A stretch of DNA of 64,000 nt, from positions 298,533 to 362,532 of IMG/VR virus record IMGVR_UViG_3300017700_000931, one strand, 5' to 3'. This stretch comes from a virus. Lineage: Duplodnaviria; Caudoviricetes. This document shows, one piece after another, positions 9,300 to 10,963 of the stretch; position 1 is the first letter of the stretch; each line of letters opens with the position of its first letter. The translations under genes and the position numbers were made by a program. The notes beneath the pieces were generated by a model. The model was given only the letters and a program-made list of their open reading frames with translations. It did no database searches and was not told the DNA's origin.

Positions 9300-10238
9300 A
9301 TGACTAATATTTTCGAGGGTTTCAACCCACTTACTAAAAGAAGTGTTGAACTTGAATTTCTTCCTGATGATAAGGATATTAGATTCTTAACTAACGTTAG
9401 TAAATACAAAAAAGAATCTGACATAGATAAAGATGACCTTGAATGGTTAGCGACTATTAAAGAAGGTCTTGAGGAGATTTCGGACTACAATAATAAAGTA
9501 GACCCAAACCATACTGATACAGCAACTGATTACCGATTAATTGATATACCTGAAGATGTAATTAGCTTAATTATTAAAGCCGAAACTGCTCTTGGGGTTA
9601 TTTACAATGGTGGTGTTACCAATTACAAAAAGGAAAAACTAAAAGAGTGTTTAACAACTAAGGGATTAACACCTAATGGTTATAAATGGGAACTTGATTA
9701 TATGTCATTTTACCCAGAGGATTATAACCGCAAACTTAAACCAAAAGGTAATTGGATTCTAATTACTGTTGATGCTCCGGTGGAGTCAGCACCAGCTAAG
9801 TATACGATTCATTATGCTACACCAGTAAGCCGAGCATATAGTGGTTATGGTGGTGGTTACAGATTGTGGTACGCAAGTATTCTTGTTAACAACAAAGAGA
9901 TTTTCATGCACCCTCGTGAGTATGTCGTTATTCATGATGCTAACTTATTGTTAGAAAACATTGGTAAAGGATTTGAAATGGTTGAGGGTTCTTCTTCGGC
10001 TAAACTGGATAAAAATAAAGTATTTTATTTGAAGTCCAGAGGATTCAACCAAGCAGAGATTTACCAAATATTGTTTAAGTCTGTAACAAACAAAGGGTTT
10101 TGTCACTTTACAGTTGACCCAGACTTGATGGTCATGTTTGATAATATTAAAGAAGGTTTCATGAGTCCAGAAATGGCTTTTAGAATTCATGACCACAGAC
10201 AAAATATGCCTAACTTTAAATTCGGTGAAAAATGTTAG
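9300..10238 (+). CDS. Novel protein with SufB/SufD C-terminal helical (SufC-docking) motif
   Basis: aa229-262 EGSSSAKLDKNKVFYLKSRGFNQAEIYQILFKSV resembles SufD HGATVGRIDDEQIFYLRSRGINQ; overlaps sufC start by 7 nt. Confidence 0.65.
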   Translation: MTNIFEGFNPLTKRSVELEFLPDDKDIRFLTNVSKYKKESDIDKDDLEWLATIKEGLEEISDYNNKVDPNHTDTATDYRLIDIPEDVISLIIKAETALGVIYNGGVTNYKKEKLKECLTTKGLTPNGYKWELDYMSFYPEDYNRKLKPKGNWILITVDAPVESAPAKYTIHYATPVSRAYSGYGGGYRLWYASILVNNKEIFMHPREYVVIHDANLLLENIGKGFEMVEGSSSAKLDKNKVFYLKSRGFNQAEIYQILFKSVTNKGFCHFTVDPDLMVMFDNIKEGFMSPEMAFRIHDHRQNMPNFKFGEKC

Positions 10239-10963
10239 AAATAAAAAACTTACATACTAGTATTAAAAAAGTACCAATTCTTAATGGTATTGACCTTAGC
10301 GTTGGTGAAGGTGAAGTTCACACCATTATGGGTAAAAACGGCTGTGGTAAGTCCACGTTGCTTAACACCATTATGGGTAGTGAAATGTATAAAGTAGATA
10401 AGGGAACCATTTCTTTGCATGGTAAAGAAATTCAAAAGATGGACCCAACTGACCGAGCAAAACTTGGTATGTTTATTTCATTCCAGACACCATACGAATT
10501 CTTTGAGGCTACAACGATTAGTATTCTTACAAGGGTATGGAATATTAACCATAAGGTTAAGGGTTCGCCAGATGACTTCTATGCAGCTCACACAGACTTA
10601 TTGAAATTACTTGACATTGATGATAACATGTTAGCTCGTGAATTCAATGTTGGTTTCTCTGGTGGTGAACGCAAACGCTTAGAGGTTCTTCAATTGTTAT
10701 TGATTAAACCCAAATTGATTCTTCTGGATGAGATTGATACCGGATTGGATATTGATAGCGTAATTGCTATTGGTAATACACTTGCTACGTACCAAAAGGA
10801 AAACAAAGCTACTGTTATTATTGTAACACACTTGTCCACATTTCTGAAGTACTTGACACCGGATAAGGTTCATGTAATGTCAGATGGTGTTATGGTTAAG
10901 TCTGGTGATAATTCATTAGCCAAAAGGATTACTGATGAAGGTTATTCTTTTATTGGTAAATAA
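10232..10963 (+). CDS. sufC: Fe-S assembly ABC ATPase SufC
   Basis: GKNGCGKST Walker A, FQTP Q-loop, NVGFSGGERKR, LLDEIDTGLDID, VTH, PDKVHVM..G..V.SG. Confidence 0.9.
   Translation: MLEIKNLHTSIKKVPILNGIDLSVGEGEVHTIMGKNGCGKSTLLNTIMGSEMYKVDKGTISLHGKEIQKMDPTDRAKLGMFISFQTPYEFFEATTISILTRVWNINHKVKGSPDDFYAAHTDLLKLLDIDDNMLAREFNVGFSGGERKRLEVLQLLLIKPKLILLDEIDTGLDIDSVIAIGNTLATYQKENKATVIIVTHLSTFLKYLTPDKVHVMSDGVMVKSGDNSLAKRITDEGYSFIGK

Follow-up and report, generated by a model that had tools for sequence, protein, structure and literature searches.

Why would a virus carry the ATPase of a bacterial iron-sulfur (Fe-S) cluster assembly machine directly behind a protein that resembles the usual partners of that ATPase over only about 44 residues? 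Many bacteria, among them Bacteroidota, Actinobacteria and Firmicutes, rely on SUF as their main or sole Fe-S assembly system, and SufC is essential in them. We examined this question in a 64-kb stretch of DNA (64,000 nucleotides (nt), hereafter the window) that forms the final part of the Caudoviricetes virus record IMGVR_UViG_3300017700_000931, where a sufC gene (10232-10963, plus strand, 243 amino acids (aa)) follows open reading frame (ORF) 9300-10238, which encodes a 312-aa protein that we refer to as the partner. With moderate confidence, we read the partner as a SufC-docking adaptor, a 'mini-SufD', which would belong to a phage-specific ATPase complex and would not serve as an Fe-S scaffold.

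An intact SufC without other SUF genes in a complete phage genome

We found that the product of ORF 10232-10963 scores 262.2 bits against the TIGR01978 sufC equivalog model, above its cut-off of 212.8, and that it misses the stricter enterobacterial model NF007134 (211.5 versus 400). As the initial annotation had stated, the gene overlaps the stop of ORF 9300-10238, the overlap being 7 nt (ATGTTAG). The Walker A, Q-loop, signature, Walker B, D-loop and H-loop motifs of this ATP-binding cassette (ABC) ATPase are all intact, with K40, Q85, FSGGERKR, D166-E167 and H200 invariant in the SufC alignment (the catalytic residues of the E. coli SufC reference are K40, E171 and H203). Identity of the window SufC is 57-98% with approximately 21 phage copies and reaches at most 47% with cellular SufCs; in a maximum-likelihood tree the sampled cellular SufCs form one clade (support 100/99), with all partner-linked phage SufCs on the other side. 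Seventeen positions set the jumbo-phage SufC clade apart from cellular SufC, among them 90, 92 and 98 just past the Q-loop, 168-184 past the D-loop and 201-204 past the H-loop. SufD contacts SufC at the Q-loop and neighbouring helices (PMC6006206), and the suggestion from the alignment is that the clade-separating sites cluster near this contact region.

The source record is 362,532 bp long, carries direct terminal repeats and is rated 100% complete by CheckV. The earlier observation that no other suf gene is recognisable in the window extends to this entire genome, in which PF01458, PF00266, PF01592, PF01521, PF02657 and PF01883 are absent elsewhere, leaving it without a second SufBD-like gene, cysteine desulfurase, NifU/IscU/SufU, A-type carrier, SufE or DUF59 protein. 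A complete suf operon elsewhere in the genome was looked for and none was found, and the only PF01458 signal is the tail of ORF 9300. The phage SufC is an orphan in its complete genome. The single radical S-adenosylmethionine (SAM) match of the genome is a protein of the RlmN/Cfr RNA-methyltransferase type on the minus strand (42773-43624), scoring 34.8 bits against PF04055, above the cut-off, and 112.6 bits against TIGR00048, below its cut-off of 290; this enzyme is a possible Fe-S client.

Similarity of the partner to SufD is confined to its tail

Next, we investigated the partner itself. Its sole similarity to SufB or SufD comprises about 44 residues within aa 214-262, a stretch that corresponds to the last strand together with the first helices in the C-terminal domain of SufD. 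The resemblance of residues 229-262 to the SufD/SufB C-terminal motif, proposed in the initial annotation, is borne out by several profile methods, which also returned matches for its FYLxSRG segment: TIGR01981 (sufD) matches aa 230-266 with the end of the model (E 5.5e-5), and PF01458 (SUFBD_core) matches aa 230-259 with profile positions 200-229 of 232 (E 1.7e-3). A profile of 16 close homologues aligned partner aa 214-254 with E. coli SufD 349-389, and one of 60 family members reached both SufD 347-390 (E 4.5e-5) and, more weakly, SufB 422-464 (E 0.025). When the family was compared by hhalign with 40 Flavobacteriaceae SufD proteins, the probability was 95.1 (E 3e-8), the alignment covering no more than 44 columns (SufD 360-403 of 437) and stopping at partner aa 261, and comparison with SufB gave a probability of 40-52. 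The SUFBD_core model is matched individually by 32 of the 60 family members, and a language-model search with aa 128-312 placed SufBD fragments as the nearest clusters (scores 0.88-0.89), which we use as a lead only. On these sequence comparisons, the similarity of the tail to SufB and SufD is real and beyond chance, and the view that the partner keeps only the SufC-docking tail of these proteins agrees with the confinement of all profile and hhalign matches to it.

The tail (aa 230-266; 9987-10097, plus strand), which we propose as the SufC-docking segment, is the most conserved part of the partner, with L236 to L244 invariant in the 16 homologues. Partner residues Y243, R247 and G248, invariant or nearly so in 60 family members, correspond to SufD Tyr374, Arg378 and Gly379, which count among those that SufD and SufB both conserve in the SufC-binding subdomain (PMC6006206). 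SufC binds the helical domain at the C-terminus of SufD and SufB (PMC5571166); the partner keeps the C-terminal helical-domain residues of this binding site, and binding to SufC is predicted from the sequence.

The residues that assemble clusters have a different fate. Cluster assembly depends on SufB Cys405 and Glu434 and on SufD His360, and in the minimal SufB* on Cys252, His279 and Glu280 in M. jannaschii numbering (bioRxiv 10.1101/2024.03.20.586028). Equivalents of SufB Cys405, SufB Glu434 and SufD His360 were sought in the partner and none is kept, no Cys or His is invariant across the 60-member family, and there is no conserved Cys upstream of the tail. The initial annotation described the conserved His of the motif as replaced by Glu, and in the profile of 16 close homologues E229 does lie opposite SufD His360; the replacement is not a conserved one, however, as E229-G230 occupies the His/Glu place and the two family columns aligned there vary, with no conserved His, Glu or Cys. 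The partner has neither a beta-helix spanning SUFBD_core, nor the SufB/SufD assembly residues, nor the homodimer core and essential residues of SufB* (SmsB).

The remainder of the partner is predicted to have another fold

Outside the tail, the predicted structure consists of a helical bundle and a small SH3-like barrel, with no beta-helix. Along the plus strand, we distinguish an N-terminal helical domain (aa 1-127; 9300-9680) that occurs in long forms only, an SH3-like beta-barrel core (aa 128-229; 9681-9986) that holds the family-invariant residues G150, W152, E207 and Y208, and, beyond the tail, a modelled C-terminal strand and two helices (aa 267-312, with the stop codon 10098-10238) without similarity to SufB/D. 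Fold searches with the partner models did not return SufD, and no membrane segments are predicted in the model. The structure models, the limitation of the hhalign match to 44 columns and the fold searches uphold the earlier statement that the region preceding the tail has no SufBD beta-helix character, and as modelled the remainder of the partner is unrelated to that beta-helix.

Separately, the ESM Atlas gave a resemblance between the barrel-plus-tail model (aa 128-312; window 9681-10235) and the C-terminal 115 residues of a Bacteroidota 'ParA' cluster of 418 aa (CbiA/ParA/AAA_31), with a template modelling (TM) score of 0.52, 116 residues aligned and a root-mean-square deviation of 2.7, and residues 303-415 of AFDB A0A0E2API7 match the same model at E 1.2e-3. 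On these models, the ParA cluster may carry this small domain on a P-loop ATPase of another kind; a sequence-level match for this lead was absent from 401 Bacteroidota genomes.

The partner belongs to a wider phage family

When 1.84 billion cluster representatives were searched exhaustively with phmmer (E <= 1e-3), the partner family came to 65 proteins, that is, at least 65 clusters, all of them at most 355 aa long and sharing a common region (aa 133-285) that comprises the barrel and the tail. No canonical SufB/D of 400-500 aa was among the 65 matches. Across 60 members, G150, W152, E207, Y208 and G248 are invariant and P139, A173, P205, Y243 and R247 nearly so, and the GC content of the family loci ranges from 30 to 63%. 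No Pfam, PHROG or PADLOC family covers the partner family, and in the PADLOC and PHROG scans no family matched ORF 9300, ORF 8836 or gp18 of phage Matzah (both described below), while the phage SufC received generic ABC-type matches only. The partner had been called a novel protein, which is right insofar as it belongs to no annotated family; it is not a one-off, being a long form of this wider phage family. The 16 close homologues are 43-58% identical to it, all 304-324 aa long and on contigs of up to 366 kb. A search for related loci with the close-homologue alignment gave one IMG/VR locus, and a profile search in a word-indexed protein database found no further homologues.

The family was encountered in phage contexts only, among the loci searched; the 401 Bacteroidota genomes contained no member at the threshold of E <= 1e-7. 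At the looser threshold of E <= 0.01, applied to three genomes of this phylum, the family model matched the tails of SufD and SufB only. GenBank phages gave no match to the region (blastn/tblastn) or to ORF 9300. GenBank records labelled as phage do contain SufC matches, which we rejected as instances of this module, all of them lying inside complete suf operons beside housekeeping genes. Microcystis phage MaAM05 (MW495066.1, 265309-273876) and Staphylococcus phage ISU935 (PV200784.1, 39154-47876) each carry a complete sufBCDS-iscU/sufU operon near the record end, neighboured by housekeeping genes (panC; methionine ABC transporter), and these operons look like host DNA, not phage genes.

Long forms are linked to SufC and short forms are not

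By gene context, the family falls cleanly into two forms. In all eight long forms examined, which have the N-terminal helical extension (the window and loci L011, L002, L005, L013, L006, L014 and L106, with differing flanks and a GC content of 30 to 50%), an ABC ATPase gene directly follows the partner gene, often overlapping it; the initial annotation had suggested looking for the gene pair in other jumbo phages. In the six copies scanned with profiles (window, L002, L005, L013, L014 and L006), the best family of the adjacent ATPase is SufC, and the other two were placed by BLAST only, the L011 copy being 76% identical to the window SufC and the L106 copy 52-53% identical to those of L006 and L014. 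Two of the adjacent ATPase genes had been cut short by the original gene calling; the DNA itself encodes them at full length. In L002, L005 and L011, the SufC-type gene follows the partner gene amid differing flanks. Ordering the loci by identity to the window gives 52, 51, 43, 33, 29 and 28% for the partner and 76, 69, 58, 44, 36 and 38% for SufC, so that the two ranks are nearly parallel, with a swap only at the two most distant loci. Because both identities fall in nearly the same order, the comparison fits one old origin of the pair followed by joint divergence.

The locus had been described as a two-gene phage module. The module is indeed conserved among phages, but it often comprises three genes, ORF 8836, the partner and sufC, the first of these (8836-9294, plus strand) encoding a 152-aa protein. 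In L011, L002 and the distant L013, a homologue stands directly 5' of the partner gene, with identities of 54, 37 and 28%, respectively (E 2e-13 for L013). The ORF 8836 product has no Pfam, PHROG, PADLOC or Atlas match, and its family has a conserved C-terminal FMGxR..YNxR motif and no invariant Cys. As a side observation, an IS605 OrfB/TnpB-like gene (PF01385, PF07282) is inserted approximately 1 kb upstream of the partner gene in L003 (1601-2869), a variant of a related 366-kb phage; the insertion is missing from the otherwise matching L002 and L004.

Short forms measure approximately 184-274 aa and have a tail near the SufB/D consensus, LFYLxSRGI..EA..MLL, and long forms outside the jumbo clade mostly have a tail of the VHYLxTRG type. 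None of the five short forms examined, each approximately 200 aa long, has an ATPase gene next door. For two members, P0027 and P0050, the tail type (VHYL or LFYL) was used to foretell the presence or absence of an adjacent SufC beforehand, correctly in both cases. An example of the short form is gp18 of the cultured Microbacterium phage Matzah, with similar genes in phages Cinna, Terij and Margaery, and SufC is absent from the complete 55.7-kb Matzah genome. Matzah gene 18 (L100, 4926-5582) is flanked by the MuF-like minor capsid gene on one side and by the major capsid gene on the other, a position within the structural block and not among early genes.

A proposed docking adaptor and its alternatives

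We infer that the adaptor binds SufC and acts through it, in the following way. In the adaptor, an N-terminal helical domain would be joined to an SH3-like barrel and to a tail of approximately 44 residues that derives from SufD. The phage SufC, co-translated with the adaptor, would receive this tail in its Q-loop groove, much as SufC in SufBC2D is held by the C-terminal helical domains of SufB and SufD. The phage-specific ATPase complex would consist of two such adaptor-SufC units, which may pair via the helical domain. ATP-driven dimerisation of SufC would shift the barrel domains and probably the ORF 8836 product, such that the barrel and the N-terminal domain, perhaps along with the product of ORF 8836, would be what the ATPase cycle acts on. 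This stoichiometry, the target of the barrel and the benefit to the phage are likewise what we infer. Because the beta-helix and the Cys/His/Glu assembly site are absent, the complex cannot be a SUF-type scaffold. Possible routes of contact with Fe-S metabolism are host SufB/D, host SufC and phage clients, for which the RlmN/Cfr-like enzyme is a candidate. The short relatives, which have no phage SufC and a tail nearer the SufB/D consensus, would most likely dock on host SufC, and a host-directed role is therefore likely for them.

Several findings favour the adaptor. Its tail is homologous to the portion by which SufD and SufB grip SufC and is the most conserved stretch of the partner, all eight long forms examined are linked to an ABC ATPase, partner and SufC diverge in parallel with these SufCs set apart from the cellular ones, the clade-separating SufC positions include groups just past the Q-, D- and H-loops, tail type correctly foretold the context of P0027 and P0050, and the features of a scaffold are lacking. 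Other points weigh against it. The tail is short (44 columns) and its profile scores lie below the family cut-offs (18.3 versus 27 bits for PF01458, 22.6 versus 222 for TIGR01981). The linkage cases may not be fully independent of each other, the module being seemingly of single origin. The clustering of the clade-separating positions of SufC, which were located in the alignment, is no more than suggestive. Finally, Fe-S assembly through unconventional ligands has candidates in the invariant E207, in His206, present in most members, and in the common but non-invariant Cys268.

A different role for the same docking, which we regard as unlikely, is that of a decoy or rewiring factor: the partner would mainly target host SufC or SufBC2D, and the phage SufC may engage host SufB/SufD. 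In a Bacteroidota host, this would block or redirect the sole machine for Fe-S assembly, with effects such as a shutdown of host metabolism or of Fe-S-dependent defences, or an advantage for phage Fe-S enzymes. That the family was encountered in phage contexts only, among the loci and genomes searched, agrees with such a role, as do the short forms, which have the tails nearest to the SufB/D consensus and occur without a phage SufC, as in Matzah. Host SufC is thus the sole partner available to the short forms. The long form, however, always comes with its own diverged SufC, whose clade-separating positions include those just past the Q-loop, SufD contacting the Q-loop and neighbouring helices of SufC, and its tail deviates from the SufB/D consensus; because of this dedicated diverged SufC and deviant tail, an insulated pair fits the long form better than cross-talk with the host.

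It is improbable, in our estimation, that the two proteins form a minimal phage Fe-S assembly or carrier pair like SufB*2C2/SmsCB, which would use unconventional ligands to supply phage Fe-S enzymes. In its favour, SufC is of equivalog level with intact catalytic motifs, the phage encodes at least one radical-SAM enzyme (the RlmN/Cfr-like protein of 42773-43624, minus strand), residues E207 and Y208 do not vary in the family, His is common at 206, Cys268 occurs in 14 of the 16 close homologues, and viral sufE and nifU are known as auxiliary genes (PMC8940887). Yet the partner lacks the beta-helix core, which in SufBC2D is the dimer interface and the site where the cluster is built (PMC6006206; PMC5571166; bioRxiv 10.1101/2024.03.20.586028), the counterparts of SufB C405, SufB E434 and SufD H360 are all lost, the family has no invariant Cys or His, and the genome contains no sulfur donor or carrier gene. 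Least credible is that the likeness of the tail is convergent or incidental, without a role in SufC binding, and that the genes are adjacent for another reason: the match is short and under the family cut-offs and fold searches gave no structural match to SufD, but independent profile methods converge on the same 44 columns, the language-model search points to SufBD, each neighbouring ATPase is a SufC-type one and none comes from another ABC family, and adjacency is kept down to 28% partner identity in different flanks.

Relation to known systems

Among known systems, the SufC2-SufD2 and SufBC2D complexes (PDB 2zu0, 5awf) share with the phage pair a SufC ATPase of the same family, a partner gene adjacent to sufC, and the C-terminal last strand and first helices of SufD/SufB with their Y-x3-R-G core. 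Unlike them, the phage partner has no N-terminal SufBD domain, no beta-helix core and no site of the Cys405/Glu434/His360 type, a helical bundle and SH3-like barrel replacing the core, and its SufC falls in a separate phage-only clade; the phage genome, in contrast to bacterial SUF, is also without sufS, sufE, sufU and sufA. The minimal SUF of anaerobic archaea and bacteria, SufB*2C2 (SmsCB; PDB 4dn7; bioRxiv 10.1101/2024.03.20.586028), likewise pairs SufC with one SufB/D-related partner of approximately 300 aa, but SufB* retains the beta-helix and the essential Cys252, His279 and Glu280, and the gene order differs, the phage partner preceding sufC.

In ABC transporters, coupling helices are short helical elements that sit in the Q-loop groove and pass the ATP cycle to an unrelated domain. 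The proposed phage docking element would similarly be a short helical piece in the groove beside the Q-loop, with the differences that the partner is soluble as modelled and that its docking element descends from SufD and not from a transporter. Viral Fe-S auxiliary genes of the sufE, nifU and iscA type have been reported from marine viromes (PMC8940887), and these, too, are phage-borne genes drawn from Fe-S assembly pathways; they are single recognisable components, whereas here an ATPase is combined with a new protein that retains the docking segment only. In the literature searched, we found no paper on both jumbo phages and SufC and no description of a SufC with a tail-only partner, and phages seem to engage the SufC motor in a manner not yet described.

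Genomic setting and probable host

The window has a GC content of approximately 32%. Using a pattern search with shuffles as the control, we found 15 promoter-like sites of the Bacteroidota type (TTTG, 18-20 nt, TAnnTTTG) in the window versus 2.8 expected, spread over 293-63217, with examples at 1649-1680, 4121-4152, 8776-8807 and 12144-12175. Many of them start with TTTGGTAGAACCAAAT, an inverted repeat that covers the -33 element. The sites appear to mark the starts of transcription units, and because of their excess the host of the phage is probably a member of the Bacteroidota. One such site, with a 20-nt spacer (8776-8807, plus strand), lies 29 nt ahead of ORF 8836 and upstream of the module; as the next on the same strand comes only at position 12144, 8836-12162 is probably one transcription unit. 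A scan of 8500-12400 for sigma-70 promoters and terminators gave a signal no higher than that of shuffles.

Directly downstream, an 85-aa ORF (10963-11220, plus strand) has a start that overlaps the sufC stop by 1 nt. Its product is Cys-rich towards the C-terminus, with a C-terminal CxxC, a further Cys and a His upstream and weak zinc-ribbon matches (E 0.03-0.07). It was considered as a conserved third partner and dropped, having no homologue beside the pair in relatives, and it probably lies outside the module. A gene for a protein with a ParB N-terminal domain (6277-6894, plus strand; PF02195, E 1.2e-9) is located 2 kb 5' of the module.

Implications

A phage family that retains only the docking segment would be a natural tool for studying how SufC is held and driven, could point the way to inhibitors or re-users of the SUF motor that occur in nature, and would exemplify the recruitment of an ABC ATPase by a virus via a minimal docking element. 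The short form is available in cultured, public Microbacterium phages (Matzah, Cinna, Terij and Margaery), and the question is therefore directly testable. Beyond the adaptor of the window, we tentatively entertain a broader picture, possible though we would not count on it, in which SufD-tail mimics occur in phages of many hosts (family loci of GC 30-63%, with hosts from probable Bacteroidota to Actinobacteria), the short forms seizing host SufC and switching off or redirecting Fe-S assembly, and the long forms building from their own SufC, the barrel and the third protein a machine that is driven by ATP and serves a purpose other than Fe-S assembly. If true, this would be the first viral strategy directed at the SUF motor.

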